A stretch of DNA of 64,000 nucleotides from a virus (IMGVR_UViG_3300031890_000005:603-64602), one strand, 5' to 3'. Shown: positions 1-39,133, counted from the stretch's first letter. Translations and numbers: made by a program. Notes: generated by a model from the letters alone, not told the origin.

Positions 1-2
1 TG

Positions 3-146
3 GTCAAGGGCGAGGACTTCGAGACCGAGGTCGACACGTTCCAGACCACGTGTCTGATCCGGGCGCGGAAGCGCGGGATCAAGATCGTGACCAAGAAGTT
101 GGCGGGTAACCGCCTGGCGGTCAAGAAGACCGCAGACAAGCGGTGA
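3..146 (+). CDS. 3' end of a small hypothetical protein (partial; resembles 20078-20305)
   Basis: Open frame VKGEDFETEVDTFQTTCLIRARKRGIKIVTKKLAGNRLAVKKTADKR to TGA at 144-146, followed by a terminator. Confidence 0.7.
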   Translation, partial: VKGEDFETEVDTFQTTCLIRARKRGIKIVTKKLAGNRLAVKKTADKR

Positions 147-156
147 CCGGGTAGGG

Positions 157-191
157 AAGGGCCCGTCCGACGAGAGTCGGGCGGGCCTTTT
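157..191 (+). terminator. Intrinsic terminator
   Basis: Stem AAGGGCCCGTCCGAC / GTCGGGCGGGCCTTT with GAGA tetraloop and a T-tract, directly after a stop codon. Confidence 0.8.
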
Positions 192-333
192 CCGCGCCTC
201 AAGGGGCCAGCGTTGCCACCTTTGTGCCACCGCGTGCCATGGGCCCATGGATCCCTGAGTGGCCCACGGATTCCATAGGTGTTCTGCGTGCCATGGGGCA
301 AGATCGGGCCCACTGCTTTACCACGGGTAGGCT

Positions 334-364
334 ATTGAAATCCCCCCGAGCCATGTGATATAAT
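334..364 (+). promoter_or_regulatory. Sigma70/HrdB-type promoter
   Basis: TTGAAA-18 bp-TATAAT with extended -10 TG, AT-rich downstream, then SD AGGAGGTGA before ATG 427. Confidence 0.85.
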
Positions 365-426
365 TATTACATAATAAAATAATAAAACAAGTCCACCAAG
401 ACAGCACAGTAAGGAGGTGAAAAGCC

Positions 427-861
427 ATGGCAAGCAAAGTTCCAGACGGGAGCATCCGGTTCGTATCAATGTCGCGTGCAAGTCAAGTCGTACCAATGAC
501 GCGAGTGATTGAAGACGACGAGACCATAACGATGACGGACGGCAAGGACAGCGTCACGCTAGTCAAGAGTGAAGATCCAAACCGGGTCACGCGCAGAACG
601 CTAACGCGCAACGAGGTCCCGCCAAAGCGTGAGGGTAAGCGCAAGCATCATCCACACAGGTGGTCCGGCGAGGAGTTCACGAAGAACCACGTGAGAGCCG
701 CGTACAGCCACGTAAGTGAAGATGGTGTCGAGCGTGACATTCCGATGACAGGAACGCGTCCCGAGGAGTGGCGAGGGACAATGAGTCCTGAGCTAACCAG
801 CGAAGTGATCGAGGGCGAAGTCCCAGCAGGGTATCAAGATCCGTTCTGGAGGGCGGTGTAA
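427..861 (+). CDS. Hypothetical protein
   Basis: First ORF after promoter, perfect SD. Confidence 0.8.
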   Translation: MASKVPDGSIRFVSMSRASQVVPMTRVIEDDETITMTDGKDSVTLVKSEDPNRVTRRTLTRNEVPPKREGKRKHHPHRWSGEEFTKNHVRAAYSHVSEDGVERDIPMTGTRPEEWRGTMSPELTSEVIEGEVPAGYQDPFWRAV

Positions 862-22130: not shown

Positions 22131-22862
22131 ATGCCCTCTGACCCAAAGCCCTTCCCTGCCGATATTTCAGGCCAGTCAATGGAGTGGCTCTGGAACGCAT
22201 GTGACCAGAACCAAGCCAAGTTTAACAGGGCCAGCGTTGCTATGCAAGAGCTCATAGCCATGGAGGCCACCTGGACCGATCAAGAGCCAGAAGGCGACGT
22301 CTGGCGCTACCGGCCATACCCGCTCGGCAAGTTCGGACAGCTCCTCACTATGGCCAGAAGGCTATGGGAGGAGTACCATACCATTATGGCCTCGTTCCTC
22401 GAGGTCGGCTGCGGTCCAGGTACCAAGTGCGTCTTCGCTCAGGAGTTCCTCTGGGTGGAGTCTACCGGTTTTGACACCTCCGAGAAGTACATCAACGCCG
22501 CCGAAGAGCTCGCTACAGCTCGCTCCGTCGACTGTGAATTCTTTATCGAGGACGCCGAGCAGTATGACCTGTACAACGAGCACAGCATTATCTTCAACAA
22601 CCGGGTCTTCAGAGACCTCGACCGACAGGCCAAGTTGGACCAAAAAATCTATGAGGCAATGGAGCCTGGTACGTTTCTTATCAACGGTAACCAGGTCACC
22701 CAGCCTCCTGGCTGGCGCCTGATCGCTCAGGACGTAGCGGCCATGCTATGGCAGAAGACCTGCCGCTGCGAAGGCATGGAAGAGCTCCTCATCTCCGAGG
22801 ACGAGGCATACCTGACATGTACGGTCTGTGCTCGCAACTTCTCGGTTGGTCCGCCCGGTTAA
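22131..22862 (+). CDS. Class I SAM-dependent methyltransferase with C-terminal Zn ribbon
   Basis: FLEVGCGPG (motif I), GFD (motif II), IEDA, IIFNN; C-terminal CxC...CxxC. Confidence 0.85.
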   Translation: MPSDPKPFPADISGQSMEWLWNACDQNQAKFNRASVAMQELIAMEATWTDQEPEGDVWRYRPYPLGKFGQLLTMARRLWEEYHTIMASFLEVGCGPGTKCVFAQEFLWVESTGFDTSEKYINAAEELATARSVDCEFFIEDAEQYDLYNEHSIIFNNRVFRDLDRQAKLDQKIYEAMEPGTFLINGNQVTQPPGWRLIAQDVAAMLWQKTCRCEGMEELLISEDEAYLTCTVCARNFSVGPPG

Positions 22863-22961: not shown

Positions 22962-23438
22962 ATGACGGAAGAGACACAGACTCAGACTCAGGAGCAAGAG
23001 GCTCCCAAGCCACAACGGAAGCACAAGGTACCTCAGGGCTGGATCACTCCAGTAGAGGCAACCCACATGCTGGTCGACGGGGGGCTTGCCAAGTCGACCC
23101 TGAACAGTGCCCAGCTGTATATCCTCAGCCGGAACGCCACATCGAACGGCATGCCGGTGGCTCACTTCGACCGCGAAGGCAAGCGGTACGAAGAGCGTCA
23201 GGTCGATCCGGTTACGGGGCAGGCAACCACTCGCCCAGCCCTTCACTGGGATGGCATCGAGGGCGAGGACGGCATCGGCTCATTCAAGGACTGGTGGGTC
23301 AACCGGCCCAAGCGGCAGCCAGGGCAGCAGAAGCCAGCTACTCCGGAGGCTCAGGCTCAGGACATCGTCGATGAGTCTGTCGAGGAGGCCGAAGCGGAGG
23401 AACTCGGCGGCGACGAGGAGCTGCAGGAAGCCGAATAA
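22962..23438 (+). CDS. Hypothetical protein with acidic tail; core resembles 11578-12366
   Basis: TP.EA...QLYILSRN; E-rich C-terminus. Confidence 0.75.
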   Translation: MTEETQTQTQEQEAPKPQRKHKVPQGWITPVEATHMLVDGGLAKSTLNSAQLYILSRNATSNGMPVAHFDREGKRYEERQVDPVTGQATTRPALHWDGIEGEDGIGSFKDWWVNRPKRQPGQQKPATPEAQAQDIVDESVEEAEAEELGGDEELQEAE

Positions 23439-23978: not shown

Positions 23979-24142
23979 TTGCTCAGATCCATGAGATCGA
24001 TTCGACGGACTTGATCGGCTGGATCGTGCTCGCCATTACCAATGACGGTCAGACACGAGTTATGACTAACGCGACATCACAAGAGCAGCTTCAAGACGCC
24101 CTCAAGGCGGCCGCAGCTGCAGAGATGGAGCGCATGACGTGA
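23942..24142 (+). CDS. Hypothetical protein
   Basis: Operon packing. Confidence 0.65.
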   Translation: MASLTNRDCGELVAQIHEIDSTDLIGWIVLAITNDGQTRVMTNATSQEQLQDALKAAAAAEMERMT

Positions 24143-25617
24143 CTGTGGAGCTCCGATCGTTCCAGAGACAACTCGTTGACAAACTTGGCACGCCCAAGAT
24201 TACCGCACGCCTTATAGGCGATGACTGCGGCTTGGGTAAGACCTATGAAGGCTCAGCAATCGACAAGGCGCTCCGAGCCGGAACGGATACCCTACATACA
24301 AACGGTCGGTTCCGGGTGACCCTGATCGTCTGCCCACGTAGTGTGTTCGAGAAGTGGCGCGACGTCCTCTTGGAGTTCATGCCGCACGCCAAGATCATGA
24401 TCATCAACCGGAAGGATCGTCATCCGTTCGTTCGGGCTGCCGTAAGCGGTACACACTCACATCTCATCTGTCACTACGAGGCCATGCGCCTCATGCCAGA
24501 GCTCAAGAAGGTCCGCTTCTTTCACATCCTCTTGGACGAGACGCATCGCATCAAGAACCGGAAGACGCAACAGACGAGAGCGGTCAAGCAACTGAAGACC
24601 ACATACAAGACGTCTATGTCTGGGACGCCTGCTGATGACAAGCCCGAAGATGTATGGTCAACTCTGAACTTCCTGTACCCGGGAACGTTCCGAGGGTACT
24701 GGCCGTTCGTAAACGCCGTCTGTCAAGTCACGACCGAAACGATCGGTCAGAGCCAGAAGACGTTCAAGAAGGTCGACGGGATGAAAAAGGTCCTCGATCG
24801 GCGAGGCGAGCCGACAGAGGAACTCGATCCGGTCGCGCTTAAGCGTTTTCATGCAATGATCGAGCCGTTCTATATGCGACGACTCAAGGAGGACGTTCTC
24901 GACGACCTGCCCGAGAAGTACTACAGCCAGATGTACGTTGACCTGTCGCCTACACAGCAGAAGGTCTATGACCAACTAGTACGCGACATGCTGGCATGGA
25001 TCGGTGAGCATGAAGACGAGCCCCTCTCGGTCCCAGTAGTCATTGCCCAGCTAGTAAGGCTGCAGCAGTGCTCACTCGGCCATCTGGAGTGGTACGAGCC
25101 GCGACCGGGAGTTGAGAAGATCCGTATCACGGAGCCGTCATCGAAGCTCGACGAGCTGTTCCACTTCATCAAGGACGAAGGCCTCTGTCAACGCGGACGC
25201 AACGGAGCTATCAACCCGATCGTGCAGTTCAGTAACAGCGTCTCGTATACACAGCTAGTTACTAGGCGGCTTACAGCTGAGGGCCTACGCGTCGCCGAGA
25301 TGACGGGTGCGACTCCTGACTGGAAGCGCGACGAGCTCCAACGCGACTTTCAGAACGGCCAGTACGACATATGGGCTGGGACGATCAAGACAGGCGGGGA
25401 GAGCATCGACCTGTTCAGGGCAAGCACAGTAACCTTCTCGGACCGAGCCTGGAACCCGAGCAAGAACACCCAAGCTGAAGACCGGCTCCATCGCATGGGC
25501 CAGAAGAACGCAGTACACGTCGTCGACTTCATGGCCCGCGATACGGTCGATCTTCGTGTCCGCGCTACAAACATTCGGAAGTGGAGCAACCTGAAAGCGA
25601 TGTTCGGCGACAGATGA
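24139..25617 (+). CDS. SNF2-family (SF2) DNA helicase
   Basis: GDDCGLGKT (Walker A), LLDETH (Walker B), SGTP, GGESIDL, QAEDRLHRMGQ. Confidence 0.92.
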   Translation: MTVELRSFQRQLVDKLGTPKITARLIGDDCGLGKTYEGSAIDKALRAGTDTLHTNGRFRVTLIVCPRSVFEKWRDVLLEFMPHAKIMIINRKDRHPFVRAAVSGTHSHLICHYEAMRLMPELKKVRFFHILLDETHRIKNRKTQQTRAVKQLKTTYKTSMSGTPADDKPEDVWSTLNFLYPGTFRGYWPFVNAVCQVTTETIGQSQKTFKKVDGMKKVLDRRGEPTEELDPVALKRFHAMIEPFYMRRLKEDVLDDLPEKYYSQMYVDLSPTQQKVYDQLVRDMLAWIGEHEDEPLSVPVVIAQLVRLQQCSLGHLEWYEPRPGVEKIRITEPSSKLDELFHFIKDEGLCQRGRNGAINPIVQFSNSVSYTQLVTRRLTAEGLRVAEMTGATPDWKRDELQRDFQNGQYDIWAGTIKTGGESIDLFRASTVTFSDRAWNPSKNTQAEDRLHRMGQKNAVHVVDFMARDTVDLRVRATNIRKWSNLKAMFGDR

Positions 25618-25638
25618 GCCCCCATTTGGAGATGCCTA

Positions 25639-26019
25639 ATGCCTGATATGACTGGCGCGATCAACATCACCCCCGAGGTCGACCTAGCCGATCCCGAGCC
25701 GCTAAGCAGGCGCATGCTGGCAGCAATCGCGCCACACGTTCCTAAGCGCCCAGTCGGGCTCGAGGTCGTCGGCATGGACGTGCACTACAGCACCTTCATG
25801 GTCAACGGAGCTATTATGACCGGCTACGCATTCCTCCTGACGGTCAAGGGCGCCCTGATCGGTACGCAGTACCACATCACGAACGCTCACATCCTGGCGC
25901 CTGCGGTACCGGACGCGAAGACAGCGCAGGAAGCGGTTCACATTAGCACGGCGAAGCTGCGCGAGGCCAAGGTGGCTCAAGCGCGACAAGTCATGGGAGG
26001 GCCAAACAGCAATGGCTAA
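25639..26019 (+). CDS. Hypothetical protein
   Basis: Operon packing. Confidence 0.7.
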   Translation: MPDMTGAINITPEVDLADPEPLSRRMLAAIAPHVPKRPVGLEVVGMDVHYSTFMVNGAIMTGYAFLLTVKGALIGTQYHITNAHILAPAVPDAKTAQEAVHISTAKLREAKVAQARQVMGGPNSNG

Positions 26020-27062: not shown

Positions 27063-27288
27063 GTACCGCGGTCCTGACCTGCGGGAGTTCGAGGTCTTGG
27101 CTGAGCATGTCGCTCTCGACGTGTCCTACGGGCCGGCAGTGCTAGTCATGGTGACAGGCATTGTGCGGCAGCTCCTTGATGGGCAACCGGGCGAGGTAGA
27201 CATAACCGTCGACGATCAACGATTCAAACTACCGGAGGTATGGAGTGCCCCTAAGGCTCCTCGAACATTATCCGAGCATACAAGGTGA
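27046..27288 (+). CDS. Hypothetical protein
   Basis: SD GAGGAG. Confidence 0.6.
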   Translation: MLISIKYRGPDLREFEVLAEHVALDVSYGPAVLVMVTGIVRQLLDGQPGEVDITVDDQRFKLPEVWSAPKAPRTLSEHTR

Positions 27289-27949
27289 GGGTCCGCGCAC
27301 CGGCGTCCCTACTCAGTTCGTGAGGTTTGCTGGATGCAACCTCCGTTGTGCCGAGTGGCCCTGCGACACGCAGTTCGCGATCCAGCCGAAGCTGTACCGC
27401 AAGGAACAGAAGTTCGTGAGCGTGGCTAGCCTCTATGCCGACATCGCAAAGATGTCAGGTGAGACTGGAGCTGAAAACGTTTGTCTTACAGGCGGCGAAC
27501 CGATGATCCAACGTGCCGACGATATCACTGAGCTGATCGAGACCCTTACGTTCTATCACACGCCGGTCGAGATGTTCAGCAACGGAACGCTACCATACCC
27601 GGACGCTATCATAGAGCTCTGTCAGGTCGTCATGGACTGGAAGCTACCGGGCTCAGGCGAAGACGCCACCGATCCGACTCGAATCGCGAACTACCACGCG
27701 ATGAGGGAGGCAGGCGGGCACACCATTAAGTTTACCTGTGTCAACCGGGCCGATCTAGAACACGCGCTTCATCTGTATGAGTTCTATGACATGAAGGACT
27801 TCCCAGGCCAAGTCTACGTCGGCCCAGTCTGGGACGCTCAACTGCCGCCGAGACAGATCGTCAAGTTCATACTCGAGCATCACCTCGCCTGGAACCTCAA
27901 CGTACAGCTACACAAGTTCATCTGGGAACCCGACGCGAGGCGCACTTGA
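27245..27949 (+). CDS. queE: 7-carboxy-7-deazaguanine synthase (radical SAM)
   Basis: SIQGEG..TG.PT.FVRFAGCNLRC....CDT, LTGGEP, DWKLPGSGE, NVQLHK. Confidence 0.92.
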   Translation: MPLRLLEHYPSIQGEGPRTGVPTQFVRFAGCNLRCAEWPCDTQFAIQPKLYRKEQKFVSVASLYADIAKMSGETGAENVCLTGGEPMIQRADDITELIETLTFYHTPVEMFSNGTLPYPDAIIELCQVVMDWKLPGSGEDATDPTRIANYHAMREAGGHTIKFTCVNRADLEHALHLYEFYDMKDFPGQVYVGPVWDAQLPPRQIVKFILEHHLAWNLNVQLHKFIWEPDARRT

Positions 27950-28020
27950 TCTGGCGGATACTATTCTGGACAGCAGTAATAGTCGTCTTGGCTATTCTAG
28001 TACTAGTACTGACACCATAA
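27946..28020 (+). CDS. 24-aa hydrophobic membrane peptide (not in ORF track)
   Basis: TTGA coupling to the queE stop; MIWRILFWTAVIVVLAILVLVLTP. Confidence 0.55.
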   Translation: MIWRILFWTAVIVVLAILVLVLTP

Positions 28021-28034
28021 GTAACCACCTAGCG

Positions 28035-28080
28035 CCTGGCCCGGCTGTCCAGACTCCCCCCCTCTGGCGGCCGGGCCAGG
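28035..28080 (+). terminator. GC-rich hairpin (terminator or processing signal) just upstream of the tRNA-like RNA
   Basis: CCTGGCCCGGC ... GCCGGGCCAGG, 11-bp perfect stem. Confidence 0.6.
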
Positions 28081-28084
28081 TCGA

Positions 28085-28153
28085 GGGCCGGAGCAAGAGG
28101 AGCGGAACTGATCAGCCGCCATGGTATCGCGGGTTCGAATCCCGTCCGGTCCA
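28085..28153 (+). ncRNA. tRNA-like RNA without a D stem, with an Ala-type acceptor stem (G3:U70, A73)
   Basis: Acceptor GGGCCGG/CCGGTCC-A; T arm GCGGG-TTCGAAT-CCCGT; no D stem; non-canonical anticodon arm; CCA not encoded. Confidence 0.65.
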
Positions 28154-28154
28154 C

Positions 28155-28574
28155 GTGAGCAAGCATAGGCAACAGAGGAAGAAACCGCCGACCTGGATTC
28201 TGATCACAGGATCCGTTGCTGCCATTATCATAACGCCGGTCGCGTCGTTCACTATCACGCTGAGCGTCATCAGGCAGCTGTTCCCTCACCAGCCACCGCT
28301 GGGGCCATACATTTACATTCCGGGACCAAGCCCTTCACCTACGCCCGTCCGGCAGAGTGGCTATTACCAGCCTCAGTACTATCCGAATCCTGTCATTCCA
28401 GGCATCCCGTCACCGATAGTAGTCGGTCCCTCAGAGCCGGTCATCCCTGGCGTGGCTACGACGCCTGCTCCGACTCCGACCACACCGGTGCCGACTACAC
28501 CAGTACCGACTACTCCAGTGCCAACAACGCCTGTGCCGACAACTTCCCCGCCGGTTACACCAACAAATTCCTAA
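28155..28574 (+). CDS. Single-pass membrane protein with Pro/Thr-rich PTTPV repeats
   Basis: Basic N-terminus, one TM segment, (PTTPV)n tail. Confidence 0.7.
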   Translation: MSKHRQQRKKPPTWILITGSVAAIIITPVASFTITLSVIRQLFPHQPPLGPYIYIPGPSPSPTPVRQSGYYQPQYYPNPVIPGIPSPIVVGPSEPVIPGVATTPAPTPTTPVPTTPVPTTPVPTTPVPTTSPPVTPTNS

Positions 28575-28595
28575 AAGTCAACCAAGTGTGATGGC

Positions 28596-28626
28596 CTTGA
28601 TTAGGCCCACTCTCTCGCGATATAAT
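28596..28626 (+). promoter_or_regulatory. Conserved phage promoter
   Basis: TTGATT-18 bp-TATAAT; GGCCT/AGGCC inverted repeat flanks the -35. Confidence 0.8.
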
Positions 28627-28659
28627 AGACTTATAACGTAAGCGAGAGAGAGCCTATAG

Positions 28660-29781
28660 ATGGACTTGAGTGCGATCCATGAGGTGCACGGATCTCAACT
28701 CAAGTCCTTTCGAGGCTGTCGTCTTCAGTATCAGTGGCAGTATGTCGACGGCTACTCGCCGCTCATTCGTCCCGCTCCTCTTGAGTTCGGGACTGCCTTC
28801 CACGTCGGGATGGAGACTCTGTACTCTCCCGCCACGTGGGACTGGCCGCTCCTCGAGTTGTACCGCCGTGCTAAGCAGGCGTTCATCGATACGTGTGAGC
28901 TTCAGCAGCGCGAGTACCTAGATCGCAAGGAGCACTATCGGCTCGACCCTGAAGAGGAAGTCGACTATCAGGAGCGCATCGAGCTCGGTACTGGTATGCT
29001 GCGCCTAGTAGCTCGCACTATGGATCGGAAGAACTTCACGCCGATTGCTGTTGAGCGTGAAGCCTTTGCGCCGATCCTCGACCCCCTTTCAAGGACGCCT
29101 CTCGTCTGCCCTCATTGCGGAAAGCCGTTCTACTACGGCGTTCGTCCGGATGCAGTGCTAGTTGATCACAATGGCCTCTACTGGCTTGTTGACTGGAAGA
29201 CTACTGCCATGCTCTTGAAGGACCAGATCGTCCTCGAGCTGGATGGTCAGATCGCAACCTACCTGTGGGCCCTCGTTCATGCTCTCGGCCTCAACTTTGC
29301 AGGGTTTAAGTACGTCCAGGTCTACAAGGGATTCCCCAAGAGGCCTAGACTGCTAATGCAACCGCGCTTCGGCCGCAAGTTCTCGGTCGCTCATAACCAG
29401 CGAACTGATCCGGTCATCTTCAAGCAAGTGGTACGCAAGAGGGACCCGGCTGCTTTCCAACTTGGACTTTATGACGAGTACCTTGAGTGGCTAGCTGAAT
29501 TCGGTCCTAAGTTCTTCAGGTGGTTTACCGTCTACAAGAGTACTGCCCAGTTGGCAACAATAGGTGCAGATCTCGCTACGCAGGTTATCGAGCAGTACAT
29601 TGGCAACCCTCCGATCTACCCTAACTCCGGCCGCATGCAATGCGAACGTTGTCCCTTCCAGGAGCCTTGTCTTGAACGCCAAAGTGGCGGACACTATCAA
29701 GACGTCCTAGACTCCAGTTATGAGCAACTGGAGCCCTACTTCGTTAGGGCACGTATTCTGAGAGAGGAACGTATCGCATGA
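28660..29781 (+). CDS. Cas4-like / PD-(D/E)xK exonuclease
   Basis: N-terminal Cys, FGTAFH, RPDAVL..LVDWKT, C-terminal CERCPFQEPC. Confidence 0.85.
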   Translation: MDLSAIHEVHGSQLKSFRGCRLQYQWQYVDGYSPLIRPAPLEFGTAFHVGMETLYSPATWDWPLLELYRRAKQAFIDTCELQQREYLDRKEHYRLDPEEEVDYQERIELGTGMLRLVARTMDRKNFTPIAVEREAFAPILDPLSRTPLVCPHCGKPFYYGVRPDAVLVDHNGLYWLVDWKTTAMLLKDQIVLELDGQIATYLWALVHALGLNFAGFKYVQVYKGFPKRPRLLMQPRFGRKFSVAHNQRTDPVIFKQVVRKRDPAAFQLGLYDEYLEWLAEFGPKFFRWFTVYKSTAQLATIGADLATQVIEQYIGNPPIYPNSGRMQCERCPFQEPCLERQSGGHYQDVLDSSYEQLEPYFVRARILREERIA

Positions 29782-29951
29782 CATCTCCACCACGCATGAC
29801 ACTCGAAGAAGAGCTACAAGCCGCCATCACTAAGTTCGAGAAGGACCTAGCGTTCACCGCTCCTGAACTGCTCCCCATGCGGGTCGAGATGCTCCGAGAG
29901 CACGTTCAGAACATCATTGCCGACTTCATGGCACATGGAGAGGCAAAGTGA
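29778..29951 (+). CDS. Hypothetical 57-aa protein (not in ORF track)
   Basis: ATGA coupling upstream, GTGATG coupling downstream. Confidence 0.65.
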   Translation: MTSPPRMTLEEELQAAITKFEKDLAFTAPELLPMRVEMLREHVQNIIADFMAHGEAK

Positions 29952-30853
29952 TGGCCGCATCAGCAATCGAGCAAGGAGCAATTAGCGGCCGAGTCATCCC
30001 GCCAGGCGTACCAACAGAGTTCGCCGGCATCCCCATCGCACCGGTTAGGGAACTTCAGCCGTACTGCAAGATGCTGATCTACGGCAAGCCGGGCTCTGGG
30101 AAGACCACGCTCGCTGCAAGCGCGAGCAAGGTAGCTGCAATGTGTCCAGTCATTCATCTCTCAACCGACGCAGCGGAGGCAGAGACACTGCGAGTCGTCG
30201 CTCCTGATGTAGTCCGGATGCAGATCGACAAGTTCGATCAGTTCTGGGACGTTAGAGATGCCCTAGAGGCTCAGTGCAAGTCGACCGCGGGACCGTACTT
30301 CAAGACCTGGATCATCGATACGGGCACGGAGGCGCAGAAGACCTCCATGCGCGACATCATGAACACCCTGATGGTGAAGGGCAGGCCCGGTGGCGGAGAG
30401 GTCAATCCTGATGTACCATCTCAACGTGAATGGGGTCAGAGCATCTCAGAGATGCGCCGACTGGTTCGCGGCTTTCGGGACCTGCCGGTCAATTTCATCA
30501 TGTGCTGCCATGAGGCTGAGTCTCGGGATAACCGCGGGGTCAACTGGATCAAGCCTGACCTACCCGGTAAGCTCGGCAATCAGGTTGCCGGCATGTTCTC
30601 CAACGTCGTCTACCTCTACACCAAGCAGTTCACAGAGCGAGAGGAGGGCAGCCGGACCAGCATAGTCACTGAGGAGAAGCGCCTGCTCCTGACAGGCCTG
30701 ACTGAAGGTTACGTCGCAAAGAGCAGGACGGGAGAGCTACCTCGGGTGATCGAAGCACCCGAGATGACAAGCCTGTACCCGATGATCACGGCGGGCAACA
30801 AGTCAACGGATACGGAAACAGAAGACGGAAACGGATCCCGTAGAACGGAGTAG
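29948..30853 (+). CDS. AAA_24 / Sak4-like ATPase (recombination)
   Basis: LIYGKPGSGKTT (Walker A), WIIDT, CHE...P.L.GK. Confidence 0.85.
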   Translation: MMAASAIEQGAISGRVIPPGVPTEFAGIPIAPVRELQPYCKMLIYGKPGSGKTTLAASASKVAAMCPVIHLSTDAAEAETLRVVAPDVVRMQIDKFDQFWDVRDALEAQCKSTAGPYFKTWIIDTGTEAQKTSMRDIMNTLMVKGRPGGGEVNPDVPSQREWGQSISEMRRLVRGFRDLPVNFIMCCHEAESRDNRGVNWIKPDLPGKLGNQVAGMFSNVVYLYTKQFTEREEGSRTSIVTEEKRLLLTGLTEGYVAKSRTGELPRVIEAPEMTSLYPMITAGNKSTDTETEDGNGSRRTE

Positions 30854-30860
30854 ATTCATC

Positions 30861-31376
30861 ATGGGAATCAAAGTGAACGTCAGCGAGCAAGAGTCCAGGT
30901 CAGGCGACCGGGAGCCTTTGCCGGCTGGTAAGTACCACATGGCCATCACCGACGTCACGATGTCGTCTCCGGCGGATGGAGAGAACATCGGCAAGCCGAT
31001 GCTGGTCTTCGAGTTCACAGTTCAGGACTCACCCGACACGCAGGTTCCCAACCGCGAGTCGAAGGACTTCCTGAACCGTAAGGACTTCGTCAACGCCTGC
31101 CTCTGGGAGGGCGCTCTGTACACCATCGTCGGCATCCTCAAGGCGCTTGGCGAGTACGAGAACAGCCTCGACAGCAACGGCGACCTCGACGTCCCGACCG
31201 AGCCGGAGTTCTACCTCAGCCGCGAGCTGTACGTCCGGCGGGCAGTCAACCGGAAGCAGAAGGAGCGGTTCCCCGACATCCCGGATTACTGGATCCAGGC
31301 TCAGGGGTACTCGCCCTACAAGCAGACGGCGTCGACCGGCGCTCCAAGGCAGCAGTCTGACTCCTTGCTGCCGTAA
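30861..31376 (+). CDS. Putative single-stranded DNA-binding protein (DUF669-like)
   Basis: PLPAGKYHMAITDV...GKPML.FEF.V; follows the exonuclease and Sak4; ends in LLP. Confidence 0.7.
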   Translation: MGIKVNVSEQESRSGDREPLPAGKYHMAITDVTMSSPADGENIGKPMLVFEFTVQDSPDTQVPNRESKDFLNRKDFVNACLWEGALYTIVGILKALGEYENSLDSNGDLDVPTEPEFYLSRELYVRRAVNRKQKERFPDIPDYWIQAQGYSPYKQTASTGAPRQQSDSLLP

Positions 31377-31382
31377 CTAGCG

Positions 31383-31489
31383 GGCTGGCTCGAGAGCTTT
31401 TGGTCCGGCGCGATGAAGCGTGAGGATGACTTACGTGGAGTACTGGGAAGGTACCGCCAGAGGTAAGGTCGCCCCGTCTCGAGCCAGTC
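31383..31489 (+). ncRNA. Candidate structured RNA in the 240-nt gap upstream of queD
   Basis: 13-bp closing stem GGCTGGCTCGAGA/TCTCGAGCCAGTC enclosing nested helices; followed by TTTAA. Confidence 0.5.
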
Positions 31490-31617
31490 TTTAACGGACA
31501 GGGCCTCTGGCCGGCGGTGCGGTCAGGGGCCCTGTTCATTAGGAGGACCTAACTACGTGGGCTATGGGTAGCCGGGATGCACGAGAGCCCGGAGGGTGGG
31601 ATCAATAAAGGAGGAAT

Positions 31618-32124
31618 GTGTACACTATAAGCAAGGACTTCAGCTTCAGTGCCGCTCACGCTTTGATTGACTTGCCTGATGACCATCAGTGCTCGCGTTT
31701 TCACGGCCACAACTACGTGATCAGGATCACTCTCGGGTCTTACCAAGTGGACCACAAAGGCTTCGTCATAGACTATGGCGAGCTAGGTACCTTCAAACAA
31801 TGGCTGGACGATACCCTAGACCACCGCTGGCTAGGCTACGGTAACCTAGCTCGCGTCATAGGAGAGCCTGGGGAAGGCCTTCTCAAGCTGCGCACCAAAC
31901 CAGCCTTTGACTTCAACCCGACCGCCGAGAACATGGCCAAGCATCTCTATGACTTCGCGGCAACGCTGTATCCCGAGGTTGTCTCGATAGGCGTCAGCGA
32001 GACACCAAAGACCTGGGCGGTATACGAACCTGGTACGCTCACTCTGGAGCACATTGAGCATGCGCTCAACGCACTACCCGAACCGATACGAACGGACTTC
32101 AGAACAGCACTGAGGAGGCATTGA
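31618..32124 (+). CDS. queD: 6-carboxy-5,6,7,8-tetrahydropterin synthase
   Basis: KDFSFSAAH.L....HQCSRFHGHNY, DYGEL, LDHR, NPTAENMA, VSETPKTWA. Confidence 0.93.
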   Translation: MYTISKDFSFSAAHALIDLPDDHQCSRFHGHNYVIRITLGSYQVDHKGFVIDYGELGTFKQWLDDTLDHRWLGYGNLARVIGEPGEGLLKLRTKPAFDFNPTAENMAKHLYDFAATLYPEVVSIGVSETPKTWAVYEPGTLTLEHIEHALNALPEPIRTDFRTALRRH

Positions 32125-32708
32125 TGGTCGAAGAGCCCGCAATCCTAAGCATGTACGAGCCCGAGCAACTGTTCTCGGCGTTCCTTACAAAGGTCTGCCC
32201 GGATATCTACGATCCCACTAGCGAGCACTTTGCTGAAACGCCTCGGCGGTTCACTCAGATGGTCCGGGACCTCACTAACGGGGACGAGAGCACCTGGCGC
32301 TTCACGACCTTCAAGTCTCACTCCCGCGAGATGGTCATCAATAAGAACATCAAGTTCGTATCCCTCTGCGCGCACCACGTAGCGCCCTTCACCGGTGTCT
32401 GTCATATCGGGTACATCCCTGACGGCCAGGTCGCCGGTCTCTCAAAGTTCGCGCGCTACGTGCAGGCAGCAGCGCATACACTAACGAACCAAGAAGAGCT
32501 GACGACTACGCTAGCCGATCAGCTCATGGACATCCTGAACCCAATTGGCGTCGCGATCGTTATGGAAGCAACTCACTCGTGCATGACGAATCGCGGAGCG
32601 CTAGCTCACGGAACTGAGACAACAACGTCCGCGATGCGAGGCGTCTACCTTGAGGACTCACGAGGCGCCAAGTCGGAGTTCTTCCAGCTACTGAGAGGCA
32701 TTGGATGA
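32121..32708 (+). CDS. folE: GTP cyclohydrolase I
   Basis: ETPRRF, SLCAHH..PF.G..HIGY.P, GLSKFAR, QEELT, HSCM..RG, TTTSAMRG. Confidence 0.93.
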   Translation: MMVEEPAILSMYEPEQLFSAFLTKVCPDIYDPTSEHFAETPRRFTQMVRDLTNGDESTWRFTTFKSHSREMVINKNIKFVSLCAHHVAPFTGVCHIGYIPDGQVAGLSKFARYVQAAAHTLTNQEELTTTLADQLMDILNPIGVAIVMEATHSCMTNRGALAHGTETTTSAMRGVYLEDSRGAKSEFFQLLRGIG

Positions 32709-32947
32709 GTAAACGACGTAAGCACCGATCCCCTGCATGGGAGCAGGCAAGAGCAGAACGCCGCGCTCGCCGTCAACGACTTCCCGAGCAGGCTCGCAAC
32801 GAGGACGGCTATATCGTCAAGACCATTGCCACTCCCGGCGGGGGGACCCGACAAGTACTTTACGATCCAGGCGAGATGGATCGCGAGCTTTACCTGCAGC
32901 AGCGCAGACGACGCGAACGAGACAGTTGGGAGGCACCGAATGCCTGA
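32705..32947 (+). CDS. Basic hypothetical protein
   Basis: ATGA coupling. Confidence 0.6.
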   Translation: MSKRRKHRSPAWEQARAERRARRQRLPEQARNEDGYIVKTIATPGGGTRQVLYDPGEMDRELYLQQRRRRERDSWEAPNA

Positions 32948-33281
32948 GGCTACAAACGGCAGCGAGACCATTACGCTACATCTGAAAGACCCGTTCGACA
33001 ACGCCATCTTCCAGATCATCAAGACGGCTGAGCGCAAGCGAGCGGACTATGCGAGCAAGGCGGCACCGTTCAGCAACTTCGAGTTCACGGCTAGCTACTT
33101 CGGCCTCAGGATCTATCAGTCTGCAGATTTCAACGAACTGCAAAAGCTAGCCCGTCTGCGAGAATTGAACCAGCCGGGAATGGAGCCAACCAACGAGCCA
33201 GTCATGGACTCATACCTCGACAAGGCAGTGTTCGCCGTCCTCGCCTATGCGATGTATCTACAAGAGTACAAGGACTGCTAA
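32940..33281 (+). CDS. Nucleotide-modification-associated domain protein (DUF1599/Nmad-like)
   Basis: KRADYA...PFSNF...QKLARL...EPVMDSYLDKAVFA; SD GGGAGG. Confidence 0.65.
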   Translation: MPEATNGSETITLHLKDPFDNAIFQIIKTAERKRADYASKAAPFSNFEFTASYFGLRIYQSADFNELQKLARLRELNQPGMEPTNEPVMDSYLDKAVFAVLAYAMYLQEYKDC

Positions 33282-34105
33282 TGGAGATCGCACTCATACC
33301 GCCCTCGTCGCTCATGCACTATGCCGAGTCGTTCAGGTACCAGATGATGCTGCCATCGCCGCAGAACATCAACTACCTGCAATACTATCGGCGCATGGGT
33401 AGCGATACTGGCCACTACGTCATCATGGACAATGGCGTCTGGGAAGAGCAACCACTGACACCTGACCAACTGATCGCCAGAGCCTCAGCCTATGGAGTCC
33501 AGGAGCTCGTCGCTCCGGACGTCCTGAACGATCCAATTGGGACCGTAAGGGCTATGCAGTACTTCTTCACGCGCTGGGACAGGTTCTGTCAGGCGACACA
33601 CGGCTCGGTGAAGATGAGCTTTATGGCTGTAGCACATGGCGACACTATCGCTAAGGCAGCTAAGTTCATTGATCACGTAGCGAGGTTCATGCCGCTCGTC
33701 GAGACCATAGCTGCCGGCCGCGCATTCTCGCGCGCCTGCAGTGATCCGCACGCCCGAGCACAACTAGCCATGCTGGTTGCCGATGAGTACTCAGAGCGGT
33801 TCGGGTTCCACCTGCTCGGGTATAACGATGCCTGGGAGGGCGAGATTGCAGCCTGTAAAGGAGTCGTGCGTAGCCTCGATACATGCGCTCCGTTTACGGC
33901 AGCCTTCTACGACAAAAGCATGCAGGACGTCGCCGAGTTCAACACACCGAGACCGAGGCACTACTTTGATCTAGACGAGGATAGCTTCAACTTGAAGCTC
34001 CTTGGACGGAACATAAAGTGGCTAACGGAGTCCGCTCTACCGAACCAGGGACATCAGGTACCGCTACGGGAGGTGAGTCCAGTATGGCCGCCGATCACGA
34101 CATGA
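33281..34105 (+). CDS. TGT-fold transglycosylase, candidate DpdA-like deazaguanine DNA-insertion enzyme
   Basis: MDNG (equivalent to TGT DSGG), APD, FHLLG and SLDT motifs; adjacent to folE/queD. Confidence 0.65.
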   Translation: MEIALIPPSSLMHYAESFRYQMMLPSPQNINYLQYYRRMGSDTGHYVIMDNGVWEEQPLTPDQLIARASAYGVQELVAPDVLNDPIGTVRAMQYFFTRWDRFCQATHGSVKMSFMAVAHGDTIAKAAKFIDHVARFMPLVETIAAGRAFSRACSDPHARAQLAMLVADEYSERFGFHLLGYNDAWEGEIAACKGVVRSLDTCAPFTAAFYDKSMQDVAEFNTPRPRHYFDLDEDSFNLKLLGRNIKWLTESALPNQGHQVPLREVSPVWPPITT

Positions 34106-34299
34106 CACATGAGTGTCCAGCCGTCGGCTGCACCAGACGAGTAGTACCCAATCAACTCGCCTGTCGCGATGACTGGTATCGGCTACCCACAGGCCTCAGG
34201 AGGCAGATATACCGTGCCTACTATGGTCCGGGTCCCGGCTCCAGTATGCACAACACTGCCCTGGATGCTGCCATAGAGTGGTATAGGGATAACCCATGA
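34102..34299 (+). CDS. Small Cys/His phage protein
   Basis: HECPAVGC...LAC..W..LP..LRR.IYRAY. Confidence 0.65.
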   Translation: MTHECPAVGCTRRVVPNQLACRDDWYRLPTGLRRQIYRAYYGPGPGSSMHNTALDAAIEWYRDNP

Positions 34300-34565
34300 A
34301 GACCCCTGTACTGTTTGTCGACGGCCCAGCCAAAGGTCAAGTTCACTACATCGAAGGCCCTGTCTACTACCACCCAGACAGCAGTAGCATACCGCTAGGC
34401 GCACCACACATATATCACATACATAGGTTCAACTTCCTTGGCAAGCCTATGCGCCTTGCCACGACTCACCTCAATGCCGAGGAGGTCTTGAACCAAGATC
34501 TCTGGGACGTAATGACGTCCCCTGAAGCGAAGAGGGTCGCCCTTGAGCGAGCTCCTGCCACCTAA
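34296..34565 (+). CDS. Hypothetical protein
   Basis: ATGA coupling; LFVDGP..G motif. Confidence 0.7.
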   Translation: MKTPVLFVDGPAKGQVHYIEGPVYYHPDSSSIPLGAPHIYHIHRFNFLGKPMRLATTHLNAEEVLNQDLWDVMTSPEAKRVALERAPAT

Positions 34566-37191
34566 GAGGCACCCACTAGCGAACTGTCACGCGTGCCCTC
34601 TCTTTGACGACGAGTTCGCCTATGTACCTAGCTACGGACCGCCCAAGGCAGATATTGCGGTTATCGGACAGAACCCAGGTCAGAATGAGATACGCAGGGG
34701 CAAGCCCTTCATCGGGGCCTCTGGGCGCCTTCTTGATCAGGTCCTAAAGTACTATCACATCGAACGGAGCGAGCTATTCCTGACCAACGCTTGCCTCTGT
34801 GTCCACCGCCGGGAGAACATCAAACCGCCTTCGCTCGCAGTCCAAGCATGCAGGCCGAGGCTGATAGCCGAGCTCAAGGACCGCGGCGTCAAGAAGGTCA
34901 TCGCACTTGGCAACGTCCCAGCCCAAGGACTGTTTAGAACACGAGATAGTATCACCCGCCTGAGAGTAGGCGCCGCTCGTGAGATAGCAGACCTTCCCGC
35001 GGTACAGATATATAGCTCGTATCATCCAGCCGCCTGTCTGAGGAACGCTTCATTCTTTCCCAGCATGGCCAACGACTTCGGCAAGCTTGTACTACCGCCC
35101 CCACCATGGAAGGAACCAGGCTATGTTGTTTGGGAAGACCCTATCACTGCCATTCGCGGCCTCCGAGAAATGCAACGACGGGGAATACGTACTGTATCCC
35201 TTGACATCGAGACCTCCGTGCCTGGTGATAAGGACACCTCCTTTGATCATCCTTACCGGTACCGTCTACTGTGTATCGGGCTCGCCTACGCTCCCGACAA
35301 AGCCATAGTCATAGGCAAGGCCGCTTGCCGCAGTGATGCTGTCCTTGAGTGTCTGAGACTATACCTCCGCAACTGCACGATCATAACACAGAATGGAAAG
35401 TTTGACAAGCAAGGGACGCATAAGAAGGTCCCGTTTGTGTTCCATCGCGACACGATGCTACAATCATACATCCTTGACGAGAGGCCAGGCCATCATGGAC
35501 TCAAGCAACAGCTCGAGGAGAAGCTCGGGTATCCACGTTACGCTGACGAGATCAAGCAATATCTTGGGACCGGAAAGGCTAAATCGTTCGCTAACATTCC
35601 ACTGCCTGTACTCTATAAGTACAACGCGTTTGATACATGCGGTACGTTCGCGCTCGATGAGCACAATATGGCCCTCATGGAATCGGACGACTTCACCGAG
35701 CCAGTCAAGGAACGCGCTGATGGTGAGAAGTGGGGACTGGTTCGACTGCATGCTTTCATGGTCGAGACGGCAAACAACCTCGCCTTCACAGAGCTCAACG
35801 GAATGGGAGTCGACCTCAGATACAACGCGCAACTGATCCGAGAGTACGACGCCGAGATCGCACGCCTAGAACGGAAGATGTTCAAGATCATCGGCTCGGA
35901 GTTCAACCCACGCTCGCCATTGCAACTCAAGGATGTGTTCCATGAGCTTGGAGTTCCTTTGCCTCTCGTGCGGCGTCCCAATGGCACTCGATCCGAAACG
36001 ACCGATGCAGATACTCTGCAAGACCTGCTTGCGGAGTACCGAGATAAGCGCCGTCAGCGGACGAGTTCGTCAAGACTGTTGGGATTCGAATATCCGGAAG
36101 GTCCTAAGACACAAACGTTGGCAGGTCAACTTGTGGACGGCGAGTTCGAGGTCGAGACGGAGACCAAGGAGGTCGCGTTCCTTGAAACGCTTCTAGACCA
36201 TCGCAAAGCGGTCAAGTACAACGGCACGTACGCGCGCGGTCTGCGGAAGCATGTCTGGAAAGGTCGAGTGTTCCCAACTGTGATGATTCACACTACAGTC
36301 ACAGGGAGGACATCTCAGAAGCGTCCCTCACTGCAGGTCATCCCTCGCCGCGACAAACTGAAGCGACAGTTCAAGGTAGTCAAGCCCGAGAACATACTAG
36401 GAGAGTTCGACTATGGACAAATCGAGCTCCGGGTCCTCACCTGGCTCGCCCAAGAAGAATACTTCCGCGAAATCTTCTCCGATCCAAGCCGGGACCTCTT
36501 CAAGGAACTCGAGCCAACCATTAAGCCTACCCGCTCTGGCCGCCCTATCGAAAATCCGAAGGACGTCCGCAATATCGTCAAGTGCTATGTATACGGTCTT
36601 GCATACGGCCGTGAGGCTAAAAGTATCGCTGACGAGTTTGACATCAGCGTTCAAGAGGCTCAGCGAGGCCTCTCTAACTTCTTCCGAGTCATTCCGAACA
36701 TTGTCCGATTCCGTGAGGAGGTCAAGTGGCAGGCAACCAATGGAGAGGACCTCGTCACCCCCTTCGGACGACGACGCAGGTTCTGGCTGATCACTGACGA
36801 GAACAAGAAAGAAGTACAGAATGAGGCTTGTGCCTTCTACCCCCAGTCCATTGCGAGTGATATTTGTATACAAGCCTTCGACTGGCTCCGACCAAAGCTC
36901 AAGGGTAAGGCCTGGTGCCGCAACCTTGTACACGATGCATTGTTCTGGGAGTTCCATCAAGACGACCTCGACTTTGTTGTTGATACCGTCCGATCGACCA
37001 TGATCGCTTCAGCCGAAGCAGTCATGGGAACCTACGTTCCAATCAAAGTCGGAGTTGACCTAGGACGCAACTGGGGTGACATGTGCAAGTACGAAGAATG
37101 GAAGGAAGGCATTAGGCCGTACCCAACCGCAGTAGAACTATGGAGGCCTGAGTGGCTGACACCGAAGAACCTATTGGCAATTACCGCGTAG
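34543..37191 (+). CDS. polA: Family A DNA polymerase with N-terminal UDG-like domain and 3'-5' exonuclease
   Basis: UDG: CHAC, GQNPG..E, PFIG.SG.LL, NAC.C, HPAA; Exo: DIET, QNGKFD, YNAFD; Pol: DYGQIELR, K...YG...YG, HDA. Confidence 0.95.
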   Translation: MSELLPPKRHPLANCHACPLFDDEFAYVPSYGPPKADIAVIGQNPGQNEIRRGKPFIGASGRLLDQVLKYYHIERSELFLTNACLCVHRRENIKPPSLAVQACRPRLIAELKDRGVKKVIALGNVPAQGLFRTRDSITRLRVGAAREIADLPAVQIYSSYHPAACLRNASFFPSMANDFGKLVLPPPPWKEPGYVVWEDPITAIRGLREMQRRGIRTVSLDIETSVPGDKDTSFDHPYRYRLLCIGLAYAPDKAIVIGKAACRSDAVLECLRLYLRNCTIITQNGKFDKQGTHKKVPFVFHRDTMLQSYILDERPGHHGLKQQLEEKLGYPRYADEIKQYLGTGKAKSFANIPLPVLYKYNAFDTCGTFALDEHNMALMESDDFTEPVKERADGEKWGLVRLHAFMVETANNLAFTELNGMGVDLRYNAQLIREYDAEIARLERKMFKIIGSEFNPRSPLQLKDVFHELGVPLPLVRRPNGTRSETTDADTLQDLLAEYRDKRRQRTSSSRLLGFEYPEGPKTQTLAGQLVDGEFEVETETKEVAFLETLLDHRKAVKYNGTYARGLRKHVWKGRVFPTVMIHTTVTGRTSQKRPSLQVIPRRDKLKRQFKVVKPENILGEFDYGQIELRVLTWLAQEEYFREIFSDPSRDLFKELEPTIKPTRSGRPIENPKDVRNIVKCYVYGLAYGREAKSIADEFDISVQEAQRGLSNFFRVIPNIVRFREEVKWQATNGEDLVTPFGRRRRFWLITDENKKEVQNEACAFYPQSIASDICIQAFDWLRPKLKGKAWCRNLVHDALFWEFHQDDLDFVVDTVRSTMIASAEAVMGTYVPIKVGVDLGRNWGDMCKYEEWKEGIRPYPTAVELWRPEWLTPKNLLAITA

Positions 37192-37337
37192 CGCTCGACG
37201 TCATGGATGAGGACACCGAAGCAAACGTCATCATCGGTGACGTCGTAGGCAACTTCGAGGAGTTCCTCAACTGCTGTACCGACACATGGTACAGACTACA
37301 GAAGATCAAGTCACGGAGGGCGAAGGAAACAACATGA
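37152..37337 (+). CDS. Hypothetical protein
   Basis: SD GGAGG; ATGA coupling to the next gene. Confidence 0.6.
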   Translation: MADTEEPIGNYRVALDVMDEDTEANVIIGDVVGNFEEFLNCCTDTWYRLQKIKSRRAKETT

Positions 37338-39133
37338 CCGAAGATCTGATCGTCTGGGCGTCGGCGGACCCCGACTACAAGACCGGGTACGGGAGACAGA
37401 CGGCGATCTGGACAAGCAAGATGCGAGACGAGGGCTACAACGTCGAGATCGCATCTATGGGAGGCCTCAAAGGAGTACCCCGTGAATGGAACGGCATCAA
37501 GGTTTGGCCAGTAGGTGACTTCTTCGATCTGGCGCAGCTATACGTCCGTCGCGACGCGAAGCTCCTGATCGGTCTGCGCGATGTGTGGACGATCAACTCG
37601 GCCATCTTTGCCGAGGCGAACATCCGATGCGCCTTCTGGACGCCTATCGACTGCGATCCGATGTCGATCGCAGACCTAGCTCACCTGCGCGCCTCACGAG
37701 CATACCCGATCGCGATGTCACGATTCGGCGGTCGGATGCTACGCAAGGCAGGCTTCGAACAGTTTCAGTACGTCCCTCACGGTATCGATACGACGTACTG
37801 GACGCCCTCGGCGGATACCGAGATGGCAAGGATACGAGCAAACATTCCAGCCGACGTCTTCGTCATCGGCATCAACGCAACGAACTTTGATGCTCAACGC
37901 AAAGGCTGGTATGAGCAGCTCGAGGCGTTCGCGCGCTTTCATGCAGAGCACCCCAACACAGCTCTCCTTGTCCATACACTGCTCAACGACGAAGGTACGA
38001 ACCTCGAGTACGTTATTCACTTGCTCGGGATCGAGGACGTAGTTGGCGCCGTCGATCAGTGGATGTACAAGCAGGGTCTCATCAGCGACAACATCCTGCG
38101 GGAGTGGTACCGAACGCTACATGTCTTGTCCAACTGCAGCTGGGGCGAAGGGTTCGGCATACCCATCGTCGAGGCCCAAGCGTGTGGAGTGCCCGCGATC
38201 GTCACCGACTGCTCCTCTATGCCAGAACTGGTTGAGAACGGCTGGCTAGTCCCAGGCGAGCGGAAGTGGAACGCGACACATAACGGCAGATGGGTCGCTC
38301 CGAACATCGATGAGATCAGGAGCGCCTACGAAGAGGCGTATCAGATGTGGGCGACGGATAAATCACGCTGGCACGCCTTCACGACCCAGGCCCGCAAGTC
38401 CGCGCAGCGGTATAGCATCGATCGCGTCTGGAAGCGCTATTGGAGACCAGCGCTCAGCGCGATCTTCAGGGGCCGCACGATGATCTTCGAGAATGCAGGC
38501 CTTAGGTGGAAGGTCGATGTCGATATCACATCCGGCGACGGCATAGGCCCCCAGCACGAGGACTCAGTCGAGCAAGTACTGCTCAGCCTCATCCCCAAGG
38601 GCGGAGTGTTCCTTGACGTCGGAGCGCATGTTGGTCACTACTCGCTCAGGGCATCTAGGGTCGCCAAGCGGGTCATCGCCATTGAGGCCAACCCAGAGAC
38701 CGTCAAGCGCCTGCAGGACAACATCAAGCTGAACGACGTTACCAATGTACAGATCGTCCCCGTAGCGGCTTGGGACAAGGACGAGATCTTGCACCTGTTC
38801 AGCCCGAATCAGACCACCCGCGATGGATCGATGCGAGTGCTACCAGACGAGGACGGCCGAGAAGTTCCCGGCGAACGACTCGACGTCATACTCAAGGACG
38901 AGCCGCGTATCGACGTTATCAAGCTCGACGTGGAGGGAGCCGATCTTCATGCACTCCGAGGCATGCGCGAACTGATCGCCAAGCACCGGCCAGTCATGTT
39001 CATCGAAGACCATTCCATCTATGACTACTACAAGCGGGAGGACCTACTAGCGCTCATCGACGAGCTCGGGTATGACTGGATCGACGGAGGCACCTACGGA
39101 GGCGCCAACTACTTCATTTGCAGGCCACGATGA
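37334..39133 (+). CDS. GT4 glycosyltransferase fused to an FkbM-family methyltransferase
   Basis: VPHGIDT, EGFGIPIVEAQACGVP.IVTD (GT-B); FLDVGAHVG, AIEANP, IKLDVEG (FkbM). Confidence 0.9.
   Translation: MTEDLIVWASADPDYKTGYGRQTAIWTSKMRDEGYNVEIASMGGLKGVPREWNGIKVWPVGDFFDLAQLYVRRDAKLLIGLRDVWTINSAIFAEANIRCAFWTPIDCDPMSIADLAHLRASRAYPIAMSRFGGRMLRKAGFEQFQYVPHGIDTTYWTPSADTEMARIRANIPADVFVIGINATNFDAQRKGWYEQLEAFARFHAEHPNTALLVHTLLNDEGTNLEYVIHLLGIEDVVGAVDQWMYKQGLISDNILREWYRTLHVLSNCSWGEGFGIPIVEAQACGVPAIVTDCSSMPELVENGWLVPGERKWNATHNGRWVAPNIDEIRSAYEEAYQMWATDKSRWHAFTTQARKSAQRYSIDRVWKRYWRPALSAIFRGRTMIFENAGLRWKVDVDITSGDGIGPQHEDSVEQVLLSLIPKGGVFLDVGAHVGHYSLRASRVAKRVIAIEANPETVKRLQDNIKLNDVTNVQIVPVAAWDKDEILHLFSPNQTTRDGSMRVLPDEDGREVPGERLDVILKDEPRIDVIKLDVEGADLHALRGMRELIAKHRPVMFIEDHSIYDYYKREDLLALIDELGYDWIDGGTYGGANYFICRPR

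Follow-up and report, generated by a model that had tools for sequence, protein, structure and literature searches.

A predicted DpdA3-type 7-deazaguanine DNA-modification module with no QueC detected in an uncultured soil phage

Introduction

Which base does a phage place in its DNA when it encodes the route to 7-carboxy-7-deazaguanine (CDG) and a protein with the fold of tRNA-guanine transglycosylase (TGT), and no QueC is found to carry CDG on to preQ0? The question is raised by a stretch of 64,000 nucleotides, hereafter the window, which comprises bases 603-64602 of the linear IMG/VR virus record IMGVR_UViG_3300031890_000005 (64,602 bp, rated about 82% complete). The carrier is a tailed, uncultured soil phage of about 81 kb, an actinophage-like siphovirus whose host is probably an actinobacterium. 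A preliminary description of the window had proposed a 7-deazaguanine DNA-modification cluster around a TGT-fold enzyme, with either insertion of a CDG-type base or recourse to host QueC. Our analysis supports the cluster and leaves these two as the live options. On balance we lean, slightly, towards a DpdA3-type 7-deazaguanine DNA-modification module in which the inserted base would be CDG itself (dCDG) or a derivative made independently of QueC.

Results

Genes for CDG synthesis

The three pathway genes and the putative transglycosylase gene are located as follows.

27245-27949, plus strand: QueE, radical S-adenosylmethionine (SAM) CDG synthase (phrog_2076 4.9e-35; NCBIfam TIGR03963 7.8e-39)
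31618-32124, plus strand: QueD, 6-carboxytetrahydropterin synthase (PF01242 1.7e-27; TIGR03367 2e-22)
32121-32708, plus strand: FolE, GTP cyclohydrolase I (PF01227 7.7e-51; NF006826 1.8e-48, above cut-off)
33281-34105, plus strand: predicted DpdA3-type DNA guanine transglycosylase, a minimal TGT barrel of 274 aa without the zinc subdomain

Searches with Pfam, PHROG and NCBIfam confirmed queE, queD and folE, all of which had been named in the preliminary description. The cluster cysteines C31, C35 and C40 and the GGEP motif of QueE are invariant in comparison with five phage QueE proteins. The catalytic motif of QueD, CSRFHGH, is intact and fits CxxxHGH; by published criteria (PMC10516641), this makes the protein a true QueD, as distinct from DpdL, its decarboxylase-like paralogue. 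FolE, QueD and QueE together take GTP to CDG, and the phage can make CDG.

Fold and conserved residues of the putative transglycosylase

No sequence match to the 33281-34105 protein was found in Pfam, PHROG, NCBIfam or PDB, whether the search started from the single sequence or from profiles of 9 or 132 sequences, and the TGT family PF01702 gave no match at E<=1 in six frames. It is thus the fold, together with profile-profile comparison, that ties the protein to TGT and DpdA3. An AlphaFold model, with nine homologues in the alignment, reached a pLDDT of 88.5 and a pTM of 0.86. The top Foldseek matches of this model in PDB are all TGT, QTRT1 or ArcTGT (E ~1e-6), and VIA-align gave Z 15.6 to ArcTGT 1j2b (244 residues aligned, root mean square deviation 4.3 A) and Z 15.5 to the bacterial TGT of Zymomonas, with 230-244 residues aligned across both comparisons. 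The best match among the viral models of BFVD is M4SLA5 of Cellulophaga phage phiST (259 aa, E 2.5e-14, TM 0.73/0.77), which is presumably CGPG_00065; the matches to ordinary phage DpdA/TGT proteins are weaker by eight orders of magnitude.

The motifs MDNG, APD, HLLG and SLDT lie at residues 49-52, 78-80, 177-180 and 198-201. The TGT-fold protein that had been proposed from these four motifs was confirmed by AlphaFold, Foldseek and VIA-align, and 132 family representatives show no variation at D50, G52, E55, E75, D80, R159, H177, G180 and D200. The residues D50, D80 and D200, which are also kept in the DpdA3 proteins of phages immuto and CP220, would by the order of the motifs be the counterparts of D102, D156 and D280 in TGT. 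The zinc-binding CxCxxC...H subdomain was not found, with neither an invariant or nearly invariant cysteine nor a conserved Cys/His cluster in the 132 sequences.

Placement in the DpdA3 lineage

Comparison of the protein with DpdA and TGT identified a TGT barrel that is kin to DpdA3 by both profile and fold. For the protein annotated as DpdA3 in Flavobacterium phage immuto_2-6A, the hhalign probability is 94.8%; for the DpdA3 homologue of Campylobacter phage CP220 it is 95.5%, and for a protein of Weizmannia phage Youna2 that lacks annotation it is 99.4%. By contrast, Dp-1 DpdA reaches 0.2% and the DpdA of Acidovorax phage ACP17 21%. A family hidden Markov model (HMM) built from about 150 cluster representatives matched Youna2 at 8e-36, immuto at 2.7e-20 and CP220 at 1.5e-14, and had no match to Dp-1 DpdA or HVTV-1 DpdA4 even at E<=1000. 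Profile and model comparisons thus indicate that the protein is a divergent branch of the published DpdA3 lineage (Cui, Hutinet et al. 2023; PMC10516641). Based on the kinship to immuto and CP220 and on the fold match to phiST, we file it as a branch of DpdA3; the new DpdA subfamily suggested in the preliminary description was not borne out.

The family is a large one, for which a search at E<=1e-3 gave 3,792 cluster representatives. In sequenced phages, of which about 50,000 were covered, its members were found only in Youna2 and in six BSP7-like Bacillus phages (BSP7, BSP19, BSTP5/8/10/12). The Youna2 gene (L001 7371-8141) and the homologues in the Bacillus phages adjoin PolA, and are unannotated or mislabelled as 'polynucleotide kinase', 'integrase/recombinase' or 'NADR'.

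The module of QueE, exonuclease, Sak4, SSB, QueD, FolE, transglycosylase and PolA is conserved across the family. Of 80 family loci, 78 have a PolA homologue no more than 10 kb away from the transglycosylase, ten of them in the clade of the window and 68 outside it. Seventy loci outside this clade have a transglycosylase match; 68 of them carry PolA, 62 FolE and 51 QueE.

Absence of QueC and its phylogenetic distribution

A six-frame search of the entire 64.6-kb record with the QueC family PF06508 gave no match at E<=1, and the SGGxDS motif was not found in six frames of the window. An ENA contig of 81,031 bp (ERZ27257254) encodes the first and last proteins of the window identically. It starts near window base 291 and extends about 17 kb beyond the window end, through head genes, scaffold, portal and terminase to a block of plus-strand genes with the following products.

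Plus-strand block, start, protein lengths in aa: 83, 93, 143, 427, 60, 60, 225 (AAA_25), 58, 113, 71, 106, 77
Plus-strand block, continued: 48, 93, 112, 70, 211 (LysM and Rpf-like), 60, 75, 102, 490 (GT2), 402 (GH26, weak), 82

According to precomputed Pfam matches, by which alone the last ~5 kb were judged, PF06508 is missing from the gene list of this contig past the window. The lack of QueC noted earlier for the window therefore extends to the record and to the gene list of the rest of the genome.

The family tree, built from 59 proteins, places the window in a clade of 11 rows with SH-aLRT support of 95. All scanned members of the clade are without QueC except the near-complete relative G004 (locus L007), and the sister clades are QueC-positive, which argues that the loss of QueC is derived in this clade. 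The QueC gene of G004 is located in an early block between the terminase and the equivalent of the window start, the part that is missing from the record of the window. Two syntenic genomes, G002 (85% complete) and G005 (95% complete), have no QueC though they cover this region. These findings support the absence of QueC from the phage.

Search for substitute or downstream enzymes

Among the window proteins, none was common to the QueC-less genomes and missing from G004, and hence nothing points to a replacement enzyme. The open reading frames (ORFs) scanned contained no amidotransferase, QueF or other candidate.

DpdL was searched in several ways. Each genome has one gene of the PTPS family, and QueD is the only one in the record (PF01242). 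However, the Pfam PTPS model used with HMMER is blind to the DpdL of ACP17 (L125 11833-12216, motif LGSPHRHLF) and finds one gene where ACP17 has both QueD and DpdL; the single PF01242 match is accordingly no evidence that DpdL is absent. The HRH of the motif LxxxHRHxF was not found in six frames of the window, and phmmer with ACP17 DpdL gave a best E of 0.35. In hhalign comparisons of the plus-strand window ORFs of 60-260 aa except QueD, the maximum was 2.3% to a QueD profile and 3.7% to DpdL, where the ACP17 control itself reached 17.4%, so that sensitivity is limited; about 5 kb of the 81-kb contig lie outside the scan. With no QueC, DpdL, QueF or amidotransferase detected, the phage-encoded pathway would end at CDG.

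Two genes are candidates for making a derivative of CDG.

37286-39133, plus strand: GT4 glycosyltransferase-FkbM methyltransferase fusion, candidate only (PF05050 2.1e-21, PF13692 7.7e-13)
22131-22862, plus strand: class I SAM methyltransferase, candidate only (Methyltransf_31/25/11)

Homologues of the GT4(-FkbM) protein were found only in QueC-less members of the clade (L003, L004, L005 and L011). In G002 a GT4 protein of 392 aa without FkbM (24862-26001) is encoded between the exonuclease and Sak4 instead of after PolA. An obligate partnership was ruled out by G005, which is QueC-less and has no GT4 or GT2 at all; the fusion is also absent from G004. The proposal that the fusion or the methyltransferase makes a derivative is weakened by the same lack of GT4 and GT2 in G005. 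Glycosylation of virion proteins is an ordinary alternative role for GT4-FkbM. The methyltransferase is conserved in G002, G004 and G005, and its best NCBIfam matches are the carboxyl O-methyltransferases Tam and BioC, at about 30 bits and far below cut-off.

Comparison of the binding pocket

Differences in the pocket are only suggestive of a relation to the loss of QueC. The aromatic residue four positions after the Asp of DNG, which by motif register takes the position of TGT Y106, is Trp (W54) in every clade member that is QueC-less; G004 has Phe at this position, and sequences further out have Ala. W54 alone follows the loss of QueC, and does so weakly, the Phe of G004 being a conservative change. 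Position 119, that of TGT Q203 by motif, is Gln in immuto, in CP220 and in 89% of the family outside the clade of the window; it is His in the clade, and likewise in the QueC-positive Youna2 and G004. H119 and R151 were rejected as markers of QueC loss, as they also occur in QueC-positive Youna2, G004 or L067.

The probable host

The relatives of the portal protein are all from actinophages, and the 81-kb contig carries a gene with Rpf-like PF06737 and LysM. These sequence features indicate that the host is probably an actinobacterium. Past the window, the contig encodes a LysM and Rpf-like transglycosylase (211 aa), a GT2 (490 aa) and a GH26-like protein (402 aa), which speak for an actinobacterial, Gram-positive host and for additional sugar chemistry. 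A scan of genome contigs for prophage or host clues returned one contig of a metagenome-assembled genome only. Of the queuosine genes, mycobacteria carry none and Rhodococcus carries TGT only; several actinobacteria are without QueC, and phage Rosebush has the full pathway for that reason (PMC6884629).

Neighbouring genes and genome ends

The module region forms a plus-strand arm for replication and modification, according to Pfam, PHROG and ESM-Atlas assignments. Its other features are listed below.

24139-25617, plus strand: SNF2 helicase
28660-29781, plus strand: PD-(D/E)XK exonuclease
29948-30853, plus strand: Sak4-like annealing protein
30861-31376, plus strand: SSB-like protein
31377-31617, plus strand: structured non-coding leader of 240 nt upstream of queD, with a predicted multi-branch fold (14-bp closing stem, then 18-bp hairpin)
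32937-33281, plus strand: small helical DUF1599-like protein, reading frame open from 32826
34543-37191, plus strand: UDG-PolA fusion, the conserved downstream neighbour of the transglycosylase (PF00476 1.7e-54, PF03167 4e-24)

The UDG-superfamily domain occupies residues 29-170 of the family A DNA polymerase fusion, and the fusion is kept in G002, G004 and G005. Between QueE and the exonuclease, the protein of the ORF at 28155-28574 (139 aa) is hydrophobic over an N-terminal stretch and has a long tail rich in Pro and Thr, with repeated PVPTT; it has no family match and is 63% identical in L003. For the ORF at 22962-23438, the ESM Atlas search gave nothing informative.

The leader upstream of queD has a minimum free energy of -105.9 kcal/mol (z -2.63). 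It is 92% identical in L003, which is too uniform for covariation, and L004 keeps the hairpin only. Rfam gave no match to the leader, and Rfam and ARAGORN searches of the module region found no riboswitch, tRNA or tmRNA. ARAGORN detected neither tRNA nor tmRNA anywhere in the window, and at 28035-28157 Rfam gave no match even at E<=1.

The gene described earlier as 'Nmad-like' is that at 32937-33281. As to its identity there is only a lead, namely DUF1599, since 25 of its 30 nearest ESM-Atlas clusters belong to the DUF1599/PF07659 set (score 0.95) and Pfam, PHROG and NCBIfam gave no match. Its homologues were found by tblastn in L003, L004 and five other family loci. The slot between FolE and the transglycosylase is filled in G004 by a different small gene (34038-34643, in L084), the C-terminus of which we take to resemble DUF3310. 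In phiST, a MazG/dUTPase-like gene lies near its DpdA3. The slot genes of the window, G004 and phiST may represent a recurring small helical partner of NTP-pyrophosphatase type.

Assemblies that carry the first window gene all break within about 1.1 kb upstream of it (22 contigs read, 10 listed; loci L096-L099, L114 and L115), and the 81-kb contig begins just 136 nt ahead of this gene (window 1-430). A break shared in this way is more suggestive of a terminal repeat or of the physical end of the genome than of chance.

Discussion

Proposed mechanism and alternatives

In the mechanism that we somewhat favour, FolE, QueD and QueE make CDG from GTP, beyond which no phage-encoded step was detected. 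The DpdA3-type enzyme, whose gene is placed beside replication genes and the DNA polymerase, would then exchange guanine in phage DNA for the deazapurine after replication, presumably using D50, D80 and D200. Such a modification would make the DNA resistant to restriction by the host, as has been demonstrated for other deazaguanine phages. Insertion of CDG by DpdA3 has already been proposed, and QueC-less DpdA3 phages are known (PMC10516641). A further suggestion, which we advance only tentatively, is that CDG itself serves the clade as its major DNA base, or else that CDG is converted, once in the DNA, to an undescribed form, for instance methylated to an ester or joined to a sugar, by the conserved SAM methyltransferase or the clade-restricted GT4(-FkbM). 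If true, dCDG would place a negatively charged purine in the major groove.

Several observations weigh against CDG as the inserted base. QueC is carried by 41 of the 50 IMG/VR records with a family member, and G004, the closest near-complete relative (PolA 64% identity), has it at 76.9 kb, so that preQ0 may still be what the enzyme of this clade prefers. None of the pocket residues cleanly follows the loss of QueC, the final ~5 kb of the 81-kb contig were assessed by precomputed matches alone, and an actinobacterial host is no more than probable. Moreover, the one virus in which dCDG has so far been seen is archaeal (a Sulfolobus virus), and the level there is a trace, 149 per million nucleotides (PMC10516641).

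The same distribution of QueC, its retention by the sister phage G004 at a remote site and the lack of a decisive pocket change speak for the first alternative, that host QueC takes CDG on to preQ0, or only as far as ADG, and that the DpdA3-type enzyme inserts the product to give dPreQ0 or dADG, with the phage boosting CDG. Phages with partial pathways that rely on the host have been described (PMC6884629). With QueC supplied by the host, there would be nothing out of the ordinary in the locus. We nevertheless regard this explanation, the main rival, as rather unlikely. The host is probably an actinobacterium, several actinobacteria have no QueC, and mycobacteria lack the queuosine genes altogether, which favours a pathway ending at CDG. 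It would also be odd to keep three of four steps and drop just the last one in at least three near-complete genomes, namely G000 with the 81-kb contig, G002 and G005.

It is improbable that QueC or DpdL is present and was overlooked, whether in the ~5 kb of the contig mentioned above, beyond the contig ends or through divergence. The incompleteness of the record, the position of QueC of G004 in a region lacking here, assembly breaks so close to the first window gene that the junction is never seen, and the failure of the PTPS model on the ACP17 control all leave some room for it. However, a full length of 79 kb is expected (64.6 kb / 0.82), and the contig, at 81 kb, is longer; its gene list continues to the last gene without PF06508, the only proteins of QueC size there being the AAA_25 and the LysM/transglycosylase proteins; the region equivalent to the QueC site of G004 is covered in G002 and G005, and none is there.

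Finally, that the TGT-fold enzyme acts on tRNA or a free nucleotide, or that the CDG pathway serves another purpose, is very improbable: although the function of this branch is a prediction, tests of DpdA3 in E. coli failed (PMC10516641) and a putative NTP-pyrophosphatase-like (DUF1599-like) gene adjoins, the 274-residue protein is without the zinc subdomain and C-terminal parts of tRNA TGTs, is encoded with PolA in nearly all family loci within a replication and recombination module, and has its nearest characterised relatives in phages with guanine fully replaced (PMC10516641).

Significance

The pathway appears to be cut to three steps ending at CDG plus a transglycosylase, and the QueC-bearing relative G004 offers a natural contrast for direct use of CDG. 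If dCDG is indeed the end product, an abundant new base would join the known DNA modifications of phages. The substrate of DpdA3 is hard to predict, and attempts at tests in E. coli have failed (PMC10516641); Youna2 and the BSP7-like phages, which are cultured and carry unannotated members of the family, could serve to test the action of the enzyme on DNA.

Comparison with known systems

The preQ0 systems based on DpdA1 and DpdA2, found in 9g, CAjan, Rosebush and Dp-1 (Hutinet et al. 2019, PMC6884629), share with the window a phage deazapurine pathway and a DNA transglycosylase that shields from restriction, and Rosebush shows that actinophages use such a pathway (PMC6884629). In contrast to the window, these systems have QueC and a TGT-recognisable DpdA, and the profile of the window has no match to the DpdA of Dp-1. 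The tRNA TGTs (bacterial TGT and ArcTGT) have the same TIM-barrel fold and Asp motifs in the same order, but differ from the window protein in their zinc-binding and C-terminal RNA-binding domains, which are absent here, and the window gene stands in a DNA-replication context.

Youna2 and the Bacillus phages BSP7, BSP19 and BSTP5/8/10/12 carry members of the same family, with the gene order FolE, small genes, transglycosylase, PolA. Their hosts are Firmicutes, and Youna2, unlike the window, has QueC in its cluster together with FolE, QueD and QueE. No report on the DNA modification of Youna2 or of these Bacillus phages was found in the papers searched.

The closest resemblance is to the DpdA3 proteins of immuto, CP220 and phiST, which are likewise minimal TGT-like barrels of about 260 aa, unseen by the Pfam TGT model and encoded with FolE, QueD and QueE near a DNA polymerase. 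DpdA3 is associated with up to full replacement of G by a 7-deazaguanine in DNA, and the Campylobacter phages stop at CDG (PMC10516641). As in the window, phiST is QueC-less and has a small MazG/DUF1599-type gene adjoining the transglycosylase. The window protein differs from these proteins in sequence, with 19-25% identity, and they form a long-branch outgroup in the tree. In contrast to the dDG system of the phiST/ACP17 type, DpdL was not detected in our searches, and in contrast to immuto, neither were QueF and a formyltransferase. Those carriers are large myoviruses of Gram-negative hosts, whereas the phage studied here is an actinophage-like siphovirus. What we consider new is the minimal form, which lacks both QueC and DpdL and is found in near-complete genomes of a clade of actinophage-like viruses that has a QueC-bearing sister.

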